NCBI GenBank assembly: GCA_043799385.1
Contig: JAZDNV010000027.1
Location: forward strand, 1-27,187
Direction: 5' to 3'
Origin: Candidatus Aenigmatarchaeota archaeon
Lineage (GTDB): Archaea > Aenigmatarchaeota > Aenigmatarchaeia > GW2011-AR5
Length of the DNA stretch: 27,187 nucleotides
Shown here: positions 2,753-24,870 of the stretch, one piece after another
Position numbering within the stretch: position 1 is the first letter of the stretch
How the letters are laid out: each line of letters opens with the position of its first letter
Made by a program: the position numbers and the translations under genes
Notes under the pieces: generated by a model
Databases searched by the model: none
Seen by the model: only the letters and a program-made list of their open reading frames with translations
What the model was told of the DNA's origin: nothing

Positions 2753-3952
2753 TTAGTATTTTTCATTCAGAACAAACCTGAACAGCAGCGGCGTAAGTAT
2801 TATTGTAACCAGAACAAAGCCTATTACGACTGTATATAATTGCTGACTTATGATGCCCATTACAAGAGCGATTTGTGCAATGGCGATGTTATAGCAGCCG
2901 CGAGGTATCATTCCTACACCAATCATCATCTTCTCTTTTCCATGATAACCGAAGAAGCCTGATAAAACACCGGAACCTACATATTTTGCAACGACTCCTA
3001 ATGCGACTAGTGCCATTATCACCCAGAAGAAGTTGAAAAACGCAGCGACGTCAACGAATATTGCAGAATACGCAAAATAGAGCGGTATCAAAAAGCCATA
3101 GCCTATGGATTTCATCTTCGGCAGTATGACAGGCTCTGCAAACTGGCTCTTGGACATTGCCATGCCTGCCAGGAACGCTCCGGCTATGTAACCTAAACCA
3201 ATATTCTCGCTTAACGCGGAGAAGATGAACAAGAGAAATATAGACACGGCAAGAAGGATTTCTTCGTCCATGAAATACCTAGTCGAGCTCAATGCTCTGT
3301 TTACTATCTTCGAGCCGACAGTAGAAATCAGGAATATGAAACCGATTATCAATAACAGCAACTTGAACAGCTCGTCGAATATAACCGTGTGGTTCTTGGA
3401 ATACATCATCAGCGCTGAGAACGCCAGTACTGCGAAAATCGTGTCAGCTAGATTAGCAGCCATCAGCATCTTTCCGCCCCTTGAATGATATATTCCTTTT
3501 TCAGATATCACGCGTATAGCCACCGACGTGCTTGTCGACAGTATGAGAACGCCTATTATAAAGCCGGTGACGATGCCGGAAGAAGCAATGGCAGAACCGG
3601 CATTGATATCCGGCAAGGCGACACCGAACGCTATGCCAAATACCAGGGAGAGCGCACAGCCGACAACGCCGATGTAGCACGCTGGGTAGACGATGTCTTT
3701 TATATCGTCAAAAGTTGTCGACAAACCTATCAGGAACATCAGAAAGACCACGCCGAGCGTTGCAATATAACCTAGCGACTCGTAAGGCGTTATTATATGC
3801 AGAATTGCGCCTAGAAGCACGCCGGCCAAAACTTCGCCTACTAGCGGGGTAAGGCTGAGCCTGTCTGTAATCTCGCCGAGTATCTTTGCGCCAACGAGCA
3901 GAATTCCTATATCAAACAGCAATTTAACTATCATAATCACATCGCTATCCAA
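2753..3952 (-). CDS. Cation:proton antiporter (CPA2 / NapA-Kef family)
   Basis: About 12 TM helices; GEVLAGVLLG, LGVVFLMFLIGL, TSTSV, GAFLAG, GMIPRG motifs. The TTG start is uncertain. Confidence 0.9.
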   Translation of the reverse strand: MDSDVIMIVKLLFDIGILLVGAKILGEITDRLSLTPLVGEVLAGVLLGAILHIITPYESLGYIATLGVVFLMFLIGLSTTFDDIKDIVYPACYIGVVGCALSLVFGIAFGVALPDINAGSAIASSGIVTGFIIGVLILSTSTSVAIRVISEKGIYHSRGGKMLMAANLADTIFAVLAFSALMMYSKNHTVIFDELFKLLLLIIGFIFLISTVGSKIVNRALSSTRYFMDEEILLAVSIFLLFIFSALSENIGLGYIAGAFLAGMAMSKSQFAEPVILPKMKSIGYGFLIPLYFAYSAIFVDVAAFFNFFWVIMALVALGVVAKYVGSGVLSGFFGYHGKEKMMIGVGMIPRGCYNIAIAQIALVMGIISQQLYTVVIGFVLVTIILTPLLFRFVLNEKY

Positions 3953-4021
3953 CTATAAACTTAAAGATAATTGTGCTGGAGACTATAAAATAATAATAGA
4001 AGTAGAGCGCCGAGAGCAGGA

Positions 4022-10052: not shown

Positions 10053-11387
10053 TCATATATCTGAGCCGTGCGTTCTGCCCACATGGATGTCAAGGCTCTT
10101 TCTCGTTTTGAACGCTTTGTCGCATTTCGCGCACTTGAACAGCGGACTCTTCCACTCTACCTTCTTTTTTTTCATAATGCGGAAGGGATAGGTCACCGGA
10201 TTCTTTATGCCTCTGCAGTATTGATCGGGTTTGCACAAGCCAATGTCAATATAATACATGTTGTTGCTGCAATTCGCCGGCGGAGTGCTCTCTCTCTTCT
10301 CGTGATAGCGTATCGTCGACAGAACTATGCTGTTGGGCAATGTGGATTTGTTATTTTCATTCCACTTGAATATTCTCTCCTGTATCTCCTGCGGAGACCA
10401 GTTCATCATCCTAAGGAAATTGACCAAAGTGAAAATGCTGCGCTTTCTTCCATCTGACAAGCCTCCTAAAATTAATTTAATGCAAGGCGGGAAAAGTTCT
10501 TCATCTATCTTCTTGTCCCAGCTTATTATTCTCTTCGGCTTTGCCTTTTCTTCTTTCATCATCATGGCGTTCCAGTCCAGCGCCGCAAGAAGGAGCGACT
10601 CGGCTTCGTTCTCCTCGCCTCTAAAAAATACTTCTGCTACCTTTACTTTTTTCGGGTTCGCAGATTCGATTGAGAAGTTTTTCAGCTGCTGGAAATTTAT
10701 CGGCAGCGAGGCAAGCCATGTCTTCTCGTTTAGCGAATATGGCGCGCGGAAAAGGTGGCGAGAGCCCCAATCTTTTTCGACCTCGACAAAATAGTACGGG
10801 TCGAGCTTGTCCGGCGGCTCCTCTAAGATGCTTAGCAGCTCCTTAGCGCTCTTTCTTCTTATAAGCTCGCGCATCAAATCGTCGGCGATGCTGTTCCTTA
10901 TGAATGCCGCGATTATGCGCGGTATTTTCGGGTATTGCTTTGCGAATGGCGTAAAATCTATCTCTTTCGGAAACATCTCGTTCGTCAGGCAGATGTGAAA
11001 GCCGCGGCGACCTGAAAATTTTATTCCGTAGTTCCTTATCCCGTAACGCTCAAGAAAATTGCATATCATCGTCGCCGTGAGCTGCGCCTCATCGATTCCG
11101 ATTTTTGAATCAATGTCAATAACGATGTCGAATCCTTTCCTCAACTGCTCATAATTTTCGTTCGTCAGCTGCATGACGTTCTTCCATTTCTCGACAGAGA
11201 TATGAAATGAAGTTATACCTTTTTTTGCCATCTGCACGATGTCGCTAGGGTATTGGATCATGTTTGGCCGCGAATCATAGCTGCCATCGAAATAAGCACC
11301 GACTACTTCACGGTCCTTTGAGTTCTTGACAAGCTCGTTGATTATATCCTCTCTTGAGTAGTATTCAATGATTTCTTGCTTGTTCAT
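10053..11387 (-). CDS. Fused DNA primase PriS-PriL with a C-terminal C2H2 zinc finger
   Basis: PriS motifs DIVIDID, KFSGRRGFHI, RAPYSLNEKT; PriL-CTD Fe-S cysteines FPPCI, PPANC, GLC..., YC..IKNP; terminal FKCAKCDKAFKTRKSLDIHVGRTH. Confidence 0.9.
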   Translation of the reverse strand: MNKQEIIEYYSREDIINELVKNSKDREVVGAYFDGSYDSRPNMIQYPSDIVQMAKKGITSFHISVEKWKNVMQLTNENYEQLRKGFDIVIDIDSKIGIDEAQLTATMICNFLERYGIRNYGIKFSGRRGFHICLTNEMFPKEIDFTPFAKQYPKIPRIIAAFIRNSIADDLMRELIRRKSAKELLSILEEPPDKLDPYYFVEVEKDWGSRHLFRAPYSLNEKTWLASLPINFQQLKNFSIESANPKKVKVAEVFFRGEENEAESLLLAALDWNAMMMKEEKAKPKRIISWDKKIDEELFPPCIKLILGGLSDGRKRSIFTLVNFLRMMNWSPQEIQERIFKWNENNKSTLPNSIVLSTIRYHEKRESTPPANCSNNMYYIDIGLCKPDQYCRGIKNPVTYPFRIMKKKKVEWKSPLFKCAKCDKAFKTRKSLDIHVGRTHGSDI

Positions 11388-13374: not shown

Positions 13375-13548
13375 ATGGAAGAATTCACAACCATCAGGGT
13401 AAGCAAGAAAAACAAAGAGCGGTTGGATGAGATAGGCAAAAAAGCTGACACGCACAACGACATAATTTCTCGATTAATGGACATAATCGAAGAGGATAAA
13501 ATCGATATAAATAACGTGAAGAGGAAGAAGCATGGTTCGACTAGATAG
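13375..13548 (+). CDS. Small ribbon-helix-helix-like DNA-binding protein (57 aa)
   Basis: 3' part of track ORF 13156..13548 from ATG 13375: MEEFTTIRVSKKNKERLDEIGKKADTHNDIISRLMD; TTI.VS...K.RL..IG....T..DII.RL is the archaeal RHH/antitoxin-like pattern. Overlaps the smc start by 17 nt. Confidence 0.8.
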   Translation: MEEFTTIRVSKKNKERLDEIGKKADTHNDIISRLMDIIEEDKIDINNVKRKKHGSTR

Positions 13549-15907
13549 GATAACGATGACTGGTTTCAAGTCGTTCGCCGGGAAGGTCACGATACCGTTT
13601 CCGTCCGGCTTCAACTGCATATGCGGGCCGAACGGCTCTGGCAAATCGAACATCGTGGATGCAATTACATTCGTTCTTGGAACGACATCTGCGAAAAGCA
13701 TACGAGCCGCGAAACTGCAGAACCTTATATTCAACGGCGGAAAGGACAGAAAGCCTGCCGATTATTGCGAAGTCATCCTGTATATAGACAACAGCGATGG
13801 AAAAATACCTGGCTGCGAAAAAGATGTCAAGATAACCAGGCGCATCACCAGAAGCGGGATAAGCGTTTACAAGCTGGATGGAAAGACTGAAACAAGGAAC
13901 AAGGTCTTGGATTTGCTGGCGAACGCAAATCTCTCGCCCGAGGGCTACAACATCATCATGCAGGGCGACATAACACGAATAATAGAAATGAACAACATGG
14001 AGAGGAGAGGGATAATAGACGATGTCTCAGGCATAGCCGAGTTCGACGAAAAAAGAGCGAAGGCGACAAGTGAATTAGAGAAAGTTGAGACACGCGTCAG
14101 AGAAAACATGATAGTTGTAGCAGAGAAGCAGCGGCTGGTCGCGCGATTAAAGGAGGATAAGGAAAACGCCGAGAGATACAAGGTTTTGAATGATAAGCTG
14201 AGGAAATCAAAAGCATCGCTGCTGCGGAAAAGAATAGTTGAAATCGAGACAAATCTAAAAAAACTGGACAACGACATACAGGAAGGCACGACCAAGCTCG
14301 AATCAGTTGACAGGAATTTTATTGATATAGAGAACCGCCTTGATTCCACAGGCAAGAGCATCTTAACGAAGAGCGATGAGATTGTCAAAAAGGCTCGCGA
14401 CTACGAGTTAATCAAAAAGATAGACGGCATCACTACAGAGATACTCAGAAAGCGCGACCGAATAGACATGAATGAGAGAGAAATAAAGAGATTAGAGATA
14501 CGCAGCCCGGTTGTAAAAGCAGTATTGGATCAAAATCTGCCTGACATATACGGTACGGTTTCTTCTCTGGTGAAAGTACCAAAAAAATACACGATTGCAA
14601 TAGAAGTTGCGATAGGCAACCACAATAATGACATAATCGTTTCAAATGACAGCGTTGCAGAAAACTGCATTAAAATGCTGAAGGAAAAGAAAATTGGTCG
14701 TGCGCGATTTTTGCCGCTGAACAAGGTAAAGGGCGAGAAGAAGAAAGGAAACGAACTTTATGCCATCGATGTGGTAGAATTCGACAAAAAGTATCAGAAT
14801 GCGATAGAATACATTCTCGGCAGCACTGCAATCGCTGACGATATCGGAAAGGCCAGGAAGCTCAGCGGTCGCATCGTGACGCTTGATGGTGATTTAATAG
14901 AAGCGTCAGGAGCAATGCTTGGCGGTTTTTACGAGAGAAAATTCTTCGGCGCAGAACGGTTCATAGAGGAGAATGAAAGACTGAAGAAGGAAATTGCCGG
15001 GCTTGAGGAAGAACTAAACAAACTGAAGGAAGAAGAAAAAACGACGATGGATGAGATAAATAAACTTGAGGATGAAAAAACAAAGGAGAGCAAGGAAGTT
15101 GAAGAATTGCGAATGAAGAGAAGCCAGCTCTATGAAGAAAAAATACTGCTGCAGGGTAACATCAGCAAACATAAAATAGAGAGCGCAAGGATAGAAGCAA
15201 GCTACGAGAGCATAAAAATTGAATACGGAGAATACGATGATGTAAAGGACTTCTACGAGCTCAGTTTGGACAAACTGCAGGAGAACGTGAGAACGTGCAT
15301 AACAGAGATAAACCAGCTCGGTCCGATAAACATGAAGGCCATTGACGAGTACCACATAATAAGCTTTGAGTTTGACGAACTCAAAAAGAAATTAGATAAG
15401 CTACTGGAAGAGAAAACGTCGATAATGAACGTCGTGCATGAAGTTGAGAAAAAACGTTATGAAAAATTCATTGAAACTTTCAACGAGATATCCAAGAACT
15501 TCTCGAGAATATACACAGACCTAATGAACGGCTTCGGCCAACTACGATTAGAGATAGAAAACAACATAGACTCAGGCCTTGTGATTGAGGCGAGCCCGGC
15601 TGGAAAAAAGGTTCTGAATCTGGATGTTATGTCGGGCGGTGAAAAAACTATGACGTCGCTTGCGTTCCTCTTCTCAATACTTGAGTTCTACTCGGCGCCG
15701 TTCTACATCTTGGACGAGATGGATGCGGCGCTCGACAAGGCAAATGTAAAAAAGATTGTAAGCCTGATGAAGAAATACTCAAAGGAGCGTCAATTCATAG
15801 TTATAACGCACAATGACTTCACGATACAAGAAGCGGATAAAGTCTTCGGCGTATCGATAGAAGACGGTGCGTCAAAAGTCTTCGGAATCGAGATGCCTAA
15901 AGAGTGA
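13532..15907 (+). CDS. smc: Chromosome segregation protein SMC, short-armed (791 aa)
   Basis: GFKSF, Walker A GPNGSGKSN, Q-loop IIMQG, hinge (YGTV...GRARFLPLN...VTLDGD...SGAMLGG), LGPINMKAI, signature MSGGEK, Walker B FYILDEMDAALD, QFIVITH. Confidence 0.95.
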   Translation: MVRLDRITMTGFKSFAGKVTIPFPSGFNCICGPNGSGKSNIVDAITFVLGTTSAKSIRAAKLQNLIFNGGKDRKPADYCEVILYIDNSDGKIPGCEKDVKITRRITRSGISVYKLDGKTETRNKVLDLLANANLSPEGYNIIMQGDITRIIEMNNMERRGIIDDVSGIAEFDEKRAKATSELEKVETRVRENMIVVAEKQRLVARLKEDKENAERYKVLNDKLRKSKASLLRKRIVEIETNLKKLDNDIQEGTTKLESVDRNFIDIENRLDSTGKSILTKSDEIVKKARDYELIKKIDGITTEILRKRDRIDMNEREIKRLEIRSPVVKAVLDQNLPDIYGTVSSLVKVPKKYTIAIEVAIGNHNNDIIVSNDSVAENCIKMLKEKKIGRARFLPLNKVKGEKKKGNELYAIDVVEFDKKYQNAIEYILGSTAIADDIGKARKLSGRIVTLDGDLIEASGAMLGGFYERKFFGAERFIEENERLKKEIAGLEEELNKLKEEEKTTMDEINKLEDEKTKESKEVEELRMKRSQLYEEKILLQGNISKHKIESARIEASYESIKIEYGEYDDVKDFYELSLDKLQENVRTCITEINQLGPINMKAIDEYHIISFEFDELKKKLDKLLEEKTSIMNVVHEVEKKRYEKFIETFNEISKNFSRIYTDLMNGFGQLRLEIENNIDSGLVIEASPAGKKVLNLDVMSGGEKTMTSLAFLFSILEFYSAPFYILDEMDAALDKANVKKIVSLMKKYSKERQFIVITHNDFTIQEADKVFGVSIEDGASKVFGIEMPKE

Positions 15908-15912
15908 TAATA

Positions 15913-16004
15913 ATCTTTGCACAAAAAATGATGGACATCTGTATGATGTCCATCGATGGTAGGCTATCGTCGCAAAGACGATAGCCTGGTTTTTGTGCAA
16001 AGTT
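15913..16004. mobile_element. MITE-like element, copy 3 (92 bp, inverted relative to the others)
   Basis: TIR ATCTTTGCACAAAAA / TTTTTGTGCAAAGTT; flanks GTGATAATA (15904-15912) and GTGATAAGG (16005-16013), 7/9 match; two perfect hairpins GATGGACATC-TGTAT-GATGTCCATC and AGGCTATCGTC-GCAAA-GACGATAGCCT. Confidence 0.82.
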
Positions 16005-16022
16005 GTGATAAGGACGATTAAA

Positions 16023-16700
16023 ATGATAGATGAAAACAAGCTGATTCAAACAATAATCCTGGGCAGCGACTGGCAGGAGGTCATGACGTCAATAGTCGTG
16101 GAAGAGGGACTTGACCCGCTGGATATCGATATAAAGAAGCTTGCTGATTCATTCATCGTATACCTGCAGCGATTGAAGAAATTCGACTTCCGCATACCTG
16201 CCAGATTCATATTGATAGCTGCGATACTGCTCAGGATGAAATGCGAATTGCTTTTAGAGGAAGAAGCTGAAAAGGTGAAGGAAGAAAAGGAGATAACAAA
16301 GATTGATATAGAGAACATCCCGCCTCTGTCGCCGCCCATAGAGAGGATGACAACAAGAAAAGTCACGCTGACCGAGCTGATAACTGCGCTTAACAAGTCA
16401 TTCGAATTCCGCGAGAAGAAGGAGATAAAAAAGCTGAGAATGCGGAGGGCAGCAGAAAGCCTCATAGAGCCGGAAATCGATATTGAAATCAAGATAAAAG
16501 GCGTCTTTGACGACATCATGGACGGCAAGACAAAATTTTCTGACCTTGTGCCAGTATGGAAGAGGACAGAAATAGTCGAGACGTTCATGCCGTTGCTTTA
16601 TTTAATGCAGCGAAACAAAATCAACTGCGATCAGGAGGAATTCTTCAAGGAAATATATATAAGACTGAAGGAATTAGATAAGACTGGCGGGCAATTATGA
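16023..16700 (+). CDS. scpA: Segregation and condensation protein A (kleisin)
   Basis: LDPLDIDI..L...F, AAILLRMK..LL, R.VTL.ELI.AL, V.TF.PLL.L.....I...QEEFF.EI. Start moved to ATG 16023 because the track start lies inside the repeat element. Confidence 0.92.
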   Translation: MIDENKLIQTIILGSDWQEVMTSIVVEEGLDPLDIDIKKLADSFIVYLQRLKKFDFRIPARFILIAAILLRMKCELLLEEEAEKVKEEKEITKIDIENIPPLSPPIERMTTRKVTLTELITALNKSFEFREKKEIKKLRMRRAAESLIEPEIDIEIKIKGVFDDIMDGKTKFSDLVPVWKRTEIVETFMPLLYLMQRNKINCDQEEFFKEIYIRLKELDKTGGQL

Positions 16701-17320
16701 TAAACAAGTTAGCGTTATTAGAGGCAGTACTGTTCACGACGGATAAACCTATGGTCATAGAAGAATTGGAGAAAACCACGAAAATAAAACGGGATGAGAT
16801 TGAACGCCTGCTAAAAGTTCTGGAGAGTAAATATTCAAACCCGGACGCAGGGATAAAATTATCGACTGGCGGCGGTTACAGATTGATAGTCAAAGAGGAT
16901 TACGTTGCCAAAGTCTCGCATTTAACGCCACATGCGGATTTGTCACGCGGTCTTCTGCGTGTATTGTCGATAATCGCTTACCACGAGCCGGTTGCGCAGT
17001 CAGAAATAGTCAAGGTCGTTGGCAACCGCACGTATGAGTATACGAAAGAGCTGGAAGAGCGCGGCCTGATAAGCAGCGAGAGAAAATCGAGAACGAAGCT
17101 ATTGACAACGACCCAGCATTTTGAAGAGTATTTTGGCGCGAAGAGGGGCGAGATAAAGGCAATGTCAGAAAAGCTGAAGACAAAGGATAAGAAAGCGGTG
17201 GCGAAAACGGAAAAAACCAAGCCGGCTGAAAGCATAAAAAATACATCTGTGCAGCACACAGAAGATGCAAAACCGTTGGAAACGCCACAGCCAGAAACCG
17301 CTTTGGAAAACGGAAATTAA
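16697..17320 (+). CDS. scpB: Segregation and condensation protein B (KITE)
   Basis: LEAVLF....P, GY.L.VK, LS...LRVLSIIAYHEPV.QSEI, L.E.GLI, TT..F.EYFG, low-complexity tail; ATGA overlap with scpA. Confidence 0.95.
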   Translation: MINKLALLEAVLFTTDKPMVIEELEKTTKIKRDEIERLLKVLESKYSNPDAGIKLSTGGGYRLIVKEDYVAKVSHLTPHADLSRGLLRVLSIIAYHEPVAQSEIVKVVGNRTYEYTKELEERGLISSERKSRTKLLTTTQHFEEYFGAKRGEIKAMSEKLKTKDKKAVAKTEKTKPAESIKNTSVQHTEDAKPLETPQPETALENGN

Positions 17321-22857: not shown

Positions 22858-24870
22858 ATGAAAAATATCGCAATGGCAGTTGTTGGTCTTGTAATAATCT
22901 CAGTGCTATTATTTTATCCATACGCAGAGCCTGAAAAACAGCAGCTAAAGAAATTCTCGTCTGAATCGGAATTGAAGAGTTACATAAAAGCCGCTGCTGA
23001 ATCCGGAACGTATTACGGTACGAGAGAGATAATGACGACCGGTGCGACAAAGCAGGGCGCAGAAAGCGCGCCGACCACGGACGGAACATCGGGCAGCGAT
23101 TACTCGACGACAAACATACAGGTCGCGGGCGTAGACGAGGCGGACATCGTGAAGAACGACGGAAAATACATATACACGATATCTAACAACAAGATTACCA
23201 TAGTTGACGCCTATCCTGCGGAGAGTGCAAAAATACTTTCAGAGATAAAATTTGAAAATACGAGCGTTTCGAACATCTTCATAAACAAAGACAGATTGAT
23301 CGCTTTTGGCAATAATTACGATTATTATTATTCAAACGGCGGTGTTATACAGGAAAAGGTTGGGGTGGCACAGAGTGAAATGATGCCATACCCATATTAT
23401 CGCTCAGACAAAACGTTCATAAACATTTATGATATCTCGGACAGGGAAAACCCAACTCTTGTAAAGAATTATACAATGGACGGAAATTACTACAACTCAA
23501 GAATGATCGGCGATTACGTTTACCTGATAACAAACCAGTATGTAAACAATTTTGAGAATCCGGTAATACCCATTGCTGCAAGATGCGGCGTTGGTTGCAT
23601 AGACGTGTGGTATTTTGATGTGCCTGAATCAAATTATCAATTTACGATAGTATCCTCAGTAAACGTGCAGACGCATGAAACGAGCACAAAGGTATTTTTG
23701 ATGGGCTACACGCAAAATATGTACGTTTCTACTGACAACATCTACATAACATACTCAAAGCGTTTGACATATGTGGATTTCCTGGATAAGATAGTCGATG
23801 CGCTTCTGCCATTGGTACCGAGCGAAACTGAGAAGATAAACGAGATAATGAATTCCAAGCTGTTCTCAAATGCAGAGAAGTTTTCAGCCATTGGAAGAGT
23901 GCTGAGCGAATACTCAGCAAAGCTAACCGCAGAGGAGCGACTAAACTTCCAGAAAAACTATGAGGAAAAACTCATTGATGTGCAGACGCAGATAGCAAAG
24001 GAGATGGAAAAAACCGTCATTCACAAGATTTCGATAAGCAACGGCAACATTGAGTACAAAGTCCAGGGCGAGGCGTCGGGAAACACGCTGAATCAGTTCT
24101 CAATGGATGAATACAATGGTTATTTCAGGATAGCAACGACAACGGATGCATGGAGCGGACAGTCGAAGAATCATGTTTACGTTCTTGATGATAGTCTTGC
24201 AGTAGTCGGTAAATTAGAGGACCTTGCTTCAGGCGAGAGGATATACTCGGTTAGATTCATCGGAAATAAGGGCTACATGGTAACGTTCAGGCAGATCGAT
24301 CCGCTGTTTATAATAGACCTTGAGAACCCAAGCAATCCGAGCGTGCTCGGCTATCTAAAAATACCGGGCGTATCGGATTACCTGCATCCTTACGACGAGA
24401 CCCACATCATAGGAGTCGGTCGCGACGCAAGCGATGAGGGTAGGATAAAGGGAATGAAGCTTTCGTTATTCGATGTAAGCGACGTTTCCAATCCGAAAGA
24501 GATATCGAAATACTTCATCGGAGAACGAGGAACGCAATCAGAAGCCTTGAACGACCATAAAGCGTTTCTGTTCAGCAGGCAGAAAAATCTATTAGTAATA
24601 CCGATAAGCCTTGTTGAAGGTGGCGAAGAATGGCGATGGGAGAAAACGTGGTACGGTGCCTTTGTTTTTAACGTCGACCTGGTCAATGGATTCACGCTGA
24701 AAGGCAAGGTAACGCATTCAAATCAGACAAACGATGGCTATTACTACGATTATTCATCGCAGATAAGAAGGTCGCTATACATGGATGACGTCCTGTATAC
24801 AATCTCGGGCAGCATGATAAAGATGAACGACCTTAACGATATGACAGAATTAAATAAAGTCATCTACTAG
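22858..24870 (+). CDS. Secreted or membrane-anchored beta-propeller domain protein (Beta_propel / COG4880-like)
   Basis: N-terminal hydrophobic signal; YSTTNIQV.GVDEADIVKNDG.YIY, LNQFSMDEY.G.FRIATT, GERIYSVRF.G...Y.VTFRQIDPLF, LKIPG.SDYLHP, SEAL.DHKAFLF. Confidence 0.9.
   Translation: MKNIAMAVVGLVIISVLLFYPYAEPEKQQLKKFSSESELKSYIKAAAESGTYYGTREIMTTGATKQGAESAPTTDGTSGSDYSTTNIQVAGVDEADIVKNDGKYIYTISNNKITIVDAYPAESAKILSEIKFENTSVSNIFINKDRLIAFGNNYDYYYSNGGVIQEKVGVAQSEMMPYPYYRSDKTFINIYDISDRENPTLVKNYTMDGNYYNSRMIGDYVYLITNQYVNNFENPVIPIAARCGVGCIDVWYFDVPESNYQFTIVSSVNVQTHETSTKVFLMGYTQNMYVSTDNIYITYSKRLTYVDFLDKIVDALLPLVPSETEKINEIMNSKLFSNAEKFSAIGRVLSEYSAKLTAEERLNFQKNYEEKLIDVQTQIAKEMEKTVIHKISISNGNIEYKVQGEASGNTLNQFSMDEYNGYFRIATTTDAWSGQSKNHVYVLDDSLAVVGKLEDLASGERIYSVRFIGNKGYMVTFRQIDPLFIIDLENPSNPSVLGYLKIPGVSDYLHPYDETHIIGVGRDASDEGRIKGMKLSLFDVSDVSNPKEISKYFIGERGTQSEALNDHKAFLFSRQKNLLVIPISLVEGGEEWRWEKTWYGAFVFNVDLVNGFTLKGKVTHSNQTNDGYYYDYSSQIRRSLYMDDVLYTISGSMIKMNDLNDMTELNKVIY

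Follow-up and report, generated by a model that had tools for sequence, protein, structure and literature searches.

A short-armed Smc encoded directly upstream of scpA and scpB in an Aenigmatarchaeota-type archaeon: a probably functional condensin of a scarcely studied length class

Among the closest described systems is the canonical Smc-ScpAB condensin of Bacillus subtilis and Pyrococcus (NCBIfam TIGR02169/TIGR02168), whose arm of ~340 aa, or 47-49 nm, typifies the family without defining it. Loop-extrusion models depend on few geometric parameters, and one of these, the length of the SMC arm, has until now been altered mostly in engineered B. subtilis proteins. According to the text of Buermann et al. 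2017 (PMC5344682), B. subtilis Smc function requires discrete arm lengths, as the earlier note on this DNA had correctly stated; their period is 91 aa. The engineered Mini-Smc proteins described there carry the hinge on a shortened head-proximal arm, with allowed lengths ~91 aa apart; the series is functional down to 253-267 aa, and the text reports no functional truncation below 253 aa. The same text mentions "possibly" a minor natural arm-length mode at 163 aa, and that of Buermann et al. 2018 (bioRxiv 10.1101/464701) analyses "naturally occurring short variants", in which a central discontinuity is especially apparent. The novelty claimed in the earlier note was accordingly overstated. The organisms behind the 163-aa mode are not named in the text of these two papers, figures and supplements aside. 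Our literature search returned no paper on short SMCs of Aenigmarchaeota, Undinarchaeota or Bipolaricaulota, although the Buermann supplements or figures may name taxa.

We suggest, with a probability of about 0.8, that the protein described here is the chromosomal Smc of a Smc-ScpA(B)-type condensin from an Aenigmatarchaeota-type archaeon, with arms fixed lineage-wide at 150-175 aa per strand vs ~340. The present analysis maps the short class to Aenigmatarchaeota, Undinarchaeota and Bipolaricaulota, and reads its central break as a conserved joint.

The smc gene, its family and its neighbours

The window, that is, the whole stretch of DNA that was analysed, comprises 27,187 nucleotides. The features of the locus are as follows.

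13375..13548, + strand: small upstream ORF, 57 aa, overlapping the smc start by 17 nt; Pfam DUF7557 at 1.3e-6 (28.1 bits, cut-off 25)
13532..15907, + strand: smc, 791 aa plus stop, an uninterrupted ORF with ATG start; Pfam SMC_N and SMC_hinge
13532..14071, + strand: first half of the ATPase head, at the N-terminus (aa 1-180), carrying Walker A and Q-loop; Pyrococcus Smc head chain 1xew_X matches residues 4-180
14072..14518, + strand: N-terminal arm strand, aa 181-329, 149 aa; AF2 helices 169-241, 245-288 and 291-322; 3.5-residue hydrophobic periodicity
14519..14941, + strand: hinge dimerisation domain, aa 330-470; Pfam SMC_hinge 337-444; PDB hinge chains 3nwc and 4rsj
14942..15445, + strand: C-terminal arm strand, aa 471-638, 168 aa; AF2 helices 474-567, 579-595 and 603-665; 3.5-residue periodicity
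15233..15337, + strand: C-strand portion of the joint, aa 568-602, a 17-residue mini-helix flanked by two breaks; the break at aa 242-244 is its counterpart in the N strand
15446..15904, + strand: second half of the ATPase head, at the C-terminus (aa 639-791), carrying the signature motif, Walker B, D-loop and H-loop; PDB chains 3kta_B and 1xew_Y match 639-790
15993..16700, + strand: scpA (kleisin), 235 aa, TTG start with an in-frame ATG 10 codons downstream; Pfam SMC_ScpA PF02616 at 6.5e-17 in two stretches
16697..17320, + strand: scpB (kite subunit), 207 aa, its start overlapping the scpA stop by 4 nt; Pfam SMC_ScpB PF04079 at 1.3e-33

The ORF, the Pfam matches (SMC_N at 1e-66, residues 4-780; PF06470 SMC_hinge at 7.7e-29) and an alignment of 66 short relatives bear out the intact 791-aa protein, with all ATPase motifs and a canonical hinge, that had been read from the sequence previously. 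The choice of start codon fits the consensus N-terminus of the aligned relatives. Invariant in the alignment are G32..K38-S39, Q144, S701-G702-G703-E704, D728-E729 and L734-D735, which we take to be Walker A, the Q-loop, the signature, Walker B and the D-loop, respectively; H760 and R58 reach at least 90% conservation. The split ABC ATPase head is complete, H-loop included, both halves match solved Smc heads, and AF2 predicts strands and helices in the N-terminal half. The hinge glycine motif G453-x6-G460-x3-G464-G465 is also invariant, in keeping with a central SMC hinge.

Among NCBIfam models the best score was that of TIGR02169, SMC_prok_A (712.2 bits in three stretches, below the cut-off of 729.4), and the next family reached 94 bits. 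The shortfall from the cut-off accompanies ~360 missing arm positions, and a short Naiadarchaeales relative (P0153) exceeds the cut-off with 767 bits. Among PDB sequences, head and hinge fragments of Pyrococcus Smc came out best (5xei at 1.6e-113). In Rad50/SbcC and ASRP proteins, too, a coiled coil, sometimes a short one, interrupts the ABC-type head, but here an SMC hinge replaces the zinc hook. The scores also place the protein outside these families: no Rad50 model exceeds 79 bits (cut-offs 700-1087), and ASRP gives 94 against 300.

The smc, scpA and scpB genes lie on one strand amid archaeal housekeeping genes, and the same order was detected at another Aenigmatarchaeota locus (L001). Both partners expected of a Smc-ScpAB system, kleisin ScpA and kite ScpB, are thus encoded with smc, with NCBIfam ScpA models matching below their cut-offs and TIGR00281 scoring ScpB at 82.7 bits against 89.2. 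At the short-form locus L003, scpAB were absent from the 1.9 kb downstream flank. The "B" of Smc-ScpAB is uncertain here because the archaeal ScpA-ScpB pairs tested by Jeon et al. 2020 do not bind. The predicted complex of ScpA with two copies of ScpB(1-165), folded without alignments, had a median score of 0.33 vs a mark of 0.34, a value that speaks neither for nor against binding. The 57-aa upstream ORF possibly encodes a co-transcribed small protein, and its belonging to the Smc system is uncertain. We do not claim a conserved fourth gene upstream of smc, since the small ORFs at this position in the window and at L001 have no pairwise similarity (BLASTP E = 3.6).

Arm lengths, the joint and the site of the loss

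Arm boundaries were anchored on the solved Pyrococcus head and hinge fragments, giving a mean arm of 158.5 aa (149 + 168; ratio 0.89). In full-length relatives measured by the same method (n=107), the N- and C-arms average ~327 and ~340 aa. Across 157 full-length relatives, the net surplus has medians of 181 aa (N strand) and 179 aa (C strand), so the shortening is symmetric, and the previous reading of arms at about half the usual length stands. Its boundaries (hinge ~325-467, N-arm ~170-325) were correct within a few residues. The difference between the two strands of the short form is accounted for by the joint insert, and the predicted helices make up two matching strands that should be able to form one antiparallel coiled coil.

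We attempted to map the deletion by phmmer, with the protein as query against the 157 full-length SMCs, and rejected the result, as the matched stretches of the query overlap one another. Target segments near the head and near the hinge are equally good partners for the arm, and therefore only the net length difference is meaningful. Since the phmmer stretches are ambiguous, helix breaks in AF2 models were used to place the deletion (mean pLDDT 82.8 for the short form and 83.3 for the full-length protein P0140). The joint recurs in the full-length model at 947-983, with its mini-helix at 960-975 vs 579-595 in the short form, ending 195 and 189 residues from the C-terminus, respectively. Between joint and hinge the modelled C strand has 94 aa in the short form vs 275 aa in the full-length protein. 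On these models the lost segment is ~180 aa per strand, from the head-proximal joint to the hinge. The best Foldseek match was again 5xei (6.4e-32), a Smc head with coiled coil and joint.

Compared with canonical Smc, the protein has in common the head, hinge, joint, two-strand antiparallel arm, motifs and adjacent scpA/scpB. It differs in the ~180 aa gone from each strand, a low-confidence mid-arm break of the full-length model included. The remaining discontinuity of the short form (N 242-244, C 568-602) lies near the arm centre, the strand midpoints being at ~255 and ~555. A strictly elbow-less reading was considered and has been softened, in view of the marked central discontinuity of the published short variants and of the joint near the arm centre here. 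From 142-155 helical residues the rod length is estimated at roughly 21-23 nm, vs the published 47-49 nm of B. subtilis Smc.

The published length series and the proposed working

With respect to the 91-aa rule, 344 - 158.5 = 185.5 aa, or 2.04 periods; conversely, 344 - 2x91 = 162, close to the 158.5 aa found here and to the mean of 161.7 aa in the close clade. A loss of ~180 aa equals two 91-aa periods, which should leave the superhelical phase between head and hinge unchanged. The text of PMC5344682 defines the 163-aa class by a mean of the two head-to-hinge segments near 163 aa and a shorter strand of at least 75% of the longer, and the present protein falls within it (149/168, mean 158.5, ratio 0.89), though the boundaries used are not identical to those of Buermann et al. 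2017. Arm length and central discontinuity both agree with the natural short-arm class as described in the 2017 and 2018 texts. The engineered Mini-Smc series ends, as far as that text goes, one period above the conserved natural arms of 158-179 aa, and in no system tested so far is an arm of ~160 aa a proven working length.

The protein is a real and probably functional short-arm Smc-ScpA(B), scarcely studied as a length class. By analogy with the family, its working would be that of canonical Smc: the hinge would form the homodimer, ATP would engage the two heads, and ScpA would bridge neck and cap to close a ring; ATP hydrolysis would drive DNA entrapment and loop extrusion. Head, joint, hinge and the coiled coil next to the head are retained in full, only the ~180 aa between joint and hinge being lost. 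A smaller lumen and a shorter reach per cycle would be expected.

Whole lineages provide a natural experiment, with an arm two 91-aa periods below the canonical one, head, joint and hinge intact, at a length that the text on the engineered B. subtilis series does not report as functional. The 791-aa Smc with ScpA and ScpB would offer a compact subject for cryo-EM and single-molecule studies, which could test whether a change in arm length brings a proportional change in step size, in DNA entrapment and in the need for a mid-arm elbow.

Relatives, alternative explanations and origin

All 120 closest 90%-identity clusters (50-65% identity) are short-armed, with a mean arm of 161.7 aa and an SD of 3.1; they come from separate contigs of up to 918 kb. 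Organism names are attached to 10 of them, 9 being Aenigmarchaeota. When the 50%-identity representatives were searched exhaustively, all measurable matches of at least 39% identity were short-armed, and the mean arm in the first 146 short rows was 163.0 aa. The lengths of the N and C strands co-vary (r = 0.83, 370 short rows). The further shortening of this particular Smc includes two matched deletions where arm and hinge meet, of 4 aa (after residue 323) and of 5 aa (after residue 472). Strand co-variation and paired deletions, together with helicity and the 3.5-residue periodicity, indicate that the arms are under constraint. The majority residue has a mean frequency of 0.52 and 0.54 in the arms and of 0.72 and 0.71 in the heads.

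The short arms are therefore a conserved trait of whole lineages, seen over hundreds of relatives, and not a misassembly. The earlier note had named three outcomes that would speak against its reading: reads showing a collapsed assembly, close relatives that are all full-length with signs of relaxed selection on this copy, and arms unable to pair in register. None of them was encountered in the sequences and models analysed, and a collapse is unlikely in view of the 120/120 independent relatives. Its proposal of a natural short-arm SMC that looks functional is upheld, judged from the sequence, by the lineage-wide length, the intact motifs, the matched arms and the adjacent scpA-scpB.

A decaying or artefactual gene, produced by relaxed selection in a reduced genome or by internal assembly collapse of the repetitive coiled-coil region, was suggested by the low complexity of coiled-coil DNA and by the window being a single contig. 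This explanation is effectively refuted by the same architecture in 120/120 independent relatives (SD 3.1 aa), the invariant catalytic residues, the reading frame open throughout and the parallel shortening of both strands. It is also very unlikely that the protein is an accessory paralogue, a specialised second SMC-like protein (for instance, for repair or defence) beside a canonical full-length Smc encoded at another site of the same genome. SMC-related paralogues are known from archaea, as reflected in the NCBIfam ASRP model, and the text of Yoshinaga et al. describes SMC5/6-related archaeal SMCs. However, smc lies directly upstream of scpA-scpB both here and at L001, the SMC_prok_A score of 712 bits stands against 94 (cut-off 300) for ASRP and 79 (cut-off 700) for Rad50, and the head and hinge trees group the protein with canonical SMCs. 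Moreover, no full-length protein named Aenigmarchaeota was among the 120 matches listed in either of two relative searches.

The proposal that the protein is suited to a small cell and genome, in the form that a small ring suffices for a very small cell and genome and that the arms were halved accordingly, is unsupported and improbable. Two of the three named short-arm lineages, Aenigmatarchaeota and Undinarchaeota/Naiadarchaeales, are indeed DPANN, and arms of intermediate length (228-240 aa) occur in some Woesearchaeota-like relatives. The third lineage is bacterial, however: Bipolaricaulota/Acetothermia are short throughout the sample (120/120 top matches, mean 177.7 aa). The comparison of SMC lengths across DPANN gave a divided answer, short in Aenigmatarchaeota and Undinarchaeota, and full in the loci of Nanoarchaeota (L004, 334 aa), Woesearchaeota (L006, 335.5 aa) and Micrarchaeota (L026, 325 aa; L032, 311 aa). 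The lengths also fall into discrete classes and not along a gradient.

That an archaeal phylum and a bacterial one share this class points either to convergence on a quantised length or to inter-domain transfer of a core chromosome protein. In the free IQ-TREE tree the archaeal and bacterial short forms are separate with 97% support, whereas the AU test did not reject the 25 short forms as one clade (p-AU 0.653, log-likelihood 5.21 higher), a group picked post hoc. The split being offset by this test, we dropped the claim of independent origins of the archaeal and bacterial short forms, and claim neither a single nor a double origin.

As a rather doubtful extension, the short-arm condensin might be a second stable design of the Smc motor with a single origin, by loss of exactly two superhelical periods per strand, which removed the mid-arm break and left the joint as the sole central discontinuity; gene transfer between Archaea (Aenigmatarchaeota, perhaps Undinarchaeota) and Bacteria (Bipolaricaulota) would have followed. 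If this were true and loops are extruded, the reach would be ~21-23 nm without the usual elbow, which would constrain those loop-extrusion models that rely on a 50-nm arm or on fold-back from hinge to head.

A genome scan for SMCs with patterns fitting all prokaryotes gave at least three short forms among the 74 loci listed (L001, L002, which is partial, and L003). Two further loci, Candidatus ainarchaeum L005 (997 aa) and Woesearchaeota L017 (953 aa), gave no hinge match with the probe used, and their total lengths suggest intermediate arms.

The short-armed Smc and its relatives

We consider it probable (about 0.8) that the smc locus of this archaeon encodes a functional, canonical-type Smc-ScpA(B) condensin whose short arm is fixed in the lineage and preserves the superhelical phase from head to hinge. 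The three genes are as follows.

13532..15907, forward strand: smc, uninterrupted open reading frame of 791 aa with an ATG start
15993..16700, forward strand: scpA (PF02616), 3' of smc
16697..17320, forward strand: scpB (PF04079), 3' of scpA

Two Pfam domains were detected in Smc: SMC_N (1e-66, residues 4-780) and SMC_hinge (7.7e-29, residues 337-444). The top NCBIfam model was the archaeal-type SMC_prok_A, with 712.2 bits in three stretches, slightly below the equivalog cut-off of 729.4 bits; the next non-SMC family reached 94 bits. Among PDB sequences, Pyrococcus Smc matched best, with fragments of its head (5xei, 1.6e-113) and of its hinge (4rsj, 3nwc). Walker A, the Q-loop, the signature motif, Walker B and the D-loop, together with the hinge glycines, are invariant across 66 aligned short relatives, in at least 90% of which the H-loop histidine and the putative arginine finger R58 are also conserved. 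The earlier note had described an intact 791-aa frame with ATPase motifs and hinge, and the reading frame, Pfam domains and 66-row alignment agree with it. By analogy with the family, this Smc would dimerise, hydrolyse ATP, bind kleisin and extrude loops.

Arms were measured with three probes (Smc segments 1-180, 330-470 and 639-791), bounded according to solved Pyrococcus fragments. The N strand is 149 aa and the C strand 168 aa long; with the same probes, the means for 107 full-length relatives are 327 and 340 aa. The net extra in 157 full-length SMCs has near-equal medians of 181 aa (N strand) and 179 aa (C strand), thus bearing out the symmetric shortening described in the earlier note. 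The two strand lengths co-vary among 370 short rows (r = 0.83).

The short arm is not an artefact. The best 120 clusters (90% identity) are 50-65% identical to the window Smc, each stem from a contig of their own (the longest 918 kb), and are all short-armed (mean 161.7 aa, SD 3.1); 106 are 767-826 aa long and the other 14 are longer, with intein Pfam domains. Ten of these 120 carry an organism name, nine being Candidatus Aenigmarchaeota/Aenigmatarchaeota and one a partial Parcubacteria group sequence. When the 50%-identity representatives were searched exhaustively, all measurable matches of at least 39% identity were short-armed, and full-length forms (1100-1200 aa), aligning in three stretches, started at 38% identity or less. 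The protein belongs to the known Smc family and to a short-arm length class that is itself known.

The window Smc is the shortest of its clade, about 11-16 aa below most members. Compared with most of the 66 aligned rows, it is short at four sites (window 14500..14950, aa 323-472): 4 aa are missing after residue 323, 6 in a hinge loop after 409, 1 after 446 and 5 after 472. The losses after 323 and 472 form a matched pair at both arm-hinge junctions.

Intein and LAGLIDADG domains (PF14890, PF14528) bring twelve of the best 120 relatives (P0057, P0063, P0070, P0072-P0074, P0080, P0086, P0093, P0095, P0101 and P0115) to a length of 1325-1370 aa; the short-form locus L003 (2366..6442) is also intein-bearing. 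The points where the alignments start suggest an insert at about window Smc residues 24-38, in the Walker A region of the N-terminal head. The window smc has no intein, and the arms of the intein-bearing relatives are still short.

Predicted site of the loss and the arm-length rule

The AlphaFold2 model of the window Smc (66-row alignment, mean pLDDT 82.8) has the following arm helices.

N arm: residues 169-241, 245-288 and 291-322
C arm: residues 474-567, 579-595 and 603-665

Hydrophobic periodicity of 3.5 residues is strong in both arms and weaker at the helix breaks. The top Foldseek match was 5xei, comprising Smc head, coiled coil and joint (6.4e-32). For comparison we modelled P0140 (1178 aa, pLDDT 83.3), the full-length relative with the highest score. 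Its C strand has the same feature as the window Smc, a 16-residue mini-helix (960-975) between breaks, which ends 195 residues from the C-terminus, versus 189 in the window Smc. We read this predicted mini-helix with its flanking breaks as the conserved joint. From joint to hinge the modelled C strand has 275 residues in P0140 versus 94 in the window Smc, and only in P0140 are both strands of this segment broken, with low confidence, at N 376-382 and C 790-793, placing the predicted loss of about 181 aa between joint and hinge, with the canonical mid-arm discontinuity included. Sequence alignment to the 157 full-length SMCs cannot place it: in the window Smc, the matches along the coiled coil overlap one another.

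At a rise of about 0.15 nm per residue, the 142-155 helical residues in the model would give an arm length of some 21-23 nm. The published value for the B. subtilis Smc arm is 47-49 nm.

According to Buermann et al. 2017 (PMC5344682), only certain arm lengths let B. subtilis Smc work. Functional arms in their truncation screen were 321-344 and 253-267 aa long; their extension screen gave 330-373 and 407-435 aa, and the dominant period is 91 aa. The distance from 344 aa to the mean arm of the window Smc (158.5 aa) is 185.5 aa, or 2.04 periods; taken to the clade mean it comes to 2.00. Compared with the B. subtilis series, these arms fit one further period down. The modelled joint (N 242-244, C 568-602) is near the arm midpoints (about 255 and 555), so the central break of natural short variants described in the text of Buermann et al. 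2018 (bioRxiv 10.1101/464701) may be the joint.

Short natural variants are therefore already in print in aggregate form, as the texts cited indicate, and the length class has been noted since 2017. To specialists who know the multimodal length distribution, a short-arm Smc will be no surprise. Our literature search, which covered main texts, found no paper naming short-arm Smc lineages. New here are the lineage mapping, the model-based assignment of the loss to the segment from joint to hinge, and the occurrence in both domains. As a natural case in which to test SMC mechanics, the protein is well suited.

Distribution and origin of the short arm

Arms could be measured in 485 of 496 surveyed proteins, a survey biased because three of its four starting queries were short forms.

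Mean arm lengths in the survey
140-179 aa: 369 proteins
190-199 aa: 1 protein
220-289 aa: 5 proteins
300-359 aa: 110 proteins

A second short group in the trees comprises relatives of P0202. Its best 120 matches are all 837-887 aa long, with arms of 177.7 aa on average (SD 2.3), and the seven organism-named ones among them are all bacteria (Candidatus Bipolaricaulota or Acetothermia); three proteins of the group score 80-136 bits higher with SMC_prok_A than with SMC_prok_B. The third, around P0153, has 26 members with arms of 169-171 aa, from Candidatus Naiadarchaeales/Naiadarchaeum and an Undinarchaeales relative. Undinarchaeales-type SMCs P0408-P0413 are 890-908 aa long and have the same 169-171-aa arms as the 826-849-aa Naiadarchaeales forms; their roughly 70 extra residues therefore lie outside the arms. 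The mean arms of the three short lineages (about 162, 170 and 178 aa) are about one heptad apart, steps that are suggestive only, the values depending on shared probe boundaries.

The earlier note suggested that short arms perhaps suit a small cell and genome. The measured loci do not support this explanation, since arms are of full length in Nanoarchaeota (334 aa), in Woesearchaeota (335.5 aa) and in Micrarchaeota (325 and 311 aa).

Both trees were built from head and hinge only, with the arms left out. The FastTree set (168 rows) took every sixth row of relatives P0002-P0120 and every sixth bacterial locus, omitting intein-bearing rows and rows without a probe match; in it the window Smc belongs to a clade with support 95 whose 27 rows are all short, the Aenigmatarchaeota locus L001 among them. 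The IQ-TREE set had 80 selected rows. Here a branch with 97% support separates Bipolaricaulota-type rows, on the bacterial side, from a 17-row all-short clade with Aenigmatarchaeota-type rows on the archaeal side. However, the best tree constrained to hold all 25 of these short rows together had a log-likelihood 5.21 above the free tree (p-AU 0.653), for a group picked after viewing the free tree. The short arm may have arisen once and then passed between domains, or the archaeal and bacterial forms may have converged on the same length class. In both trees P0153 and another relative, P0247, are on long branches among full-length archaeal SMCs, a placement that hints at further independent shortening events.

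Gene neighbourhood

The scpA stop and scpB start overlap by 4 nt (16697..16700), a bacterial-like juxtaposition. The smc-scpA-scpB order is also present in L001, and scpAB was not found within the flank of L003. In Jeon et al. 2020 (PMC7055376), the tested archaeal ScpA-ScpB pairs showed no binding, scpB was missing from 480 of 640 archaeal genomes, and of the 160 genomes with both genes, 61 had them far apart. In the window scpA and scpB overlap; ScpB is an uncertain participant in this condensin.

A 57-aa reading frame (13375..13548, forward strand), which shares 17 nt with the start of smc, matches DUF7557 above the Pfam cut-off (1.3e-6). At the same position L001 has a 59-aa frame (3813..3992, forward strand; 4-nt overlap with the smc start) with weak VapB-antitoxin and ribbon-helix-helix matches below cut-offs; pairwise comparison of the two found no similarity (E = 3.6).

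Other window genes are archaeal housekeeping genes (Cbf5, uS15, primase small subunit, archaeal IMP cyclohydrolase, thymidylate kinase and a RIO/Bud32-type kinase), and no tRNA genes were found in the window. The 444-aa product of 10053..11387 (reverse strand) weakly matches the DNA primase small subunit at residues 100-230 (4.9e-7) and, because the rest has no assignment, may be a fused or divergent primase. A 670-aa protein (22858..24870, forward strand), unrelated to the SMC locus, matches Beta_propel very strongly (PF09826, 6.1e-169).
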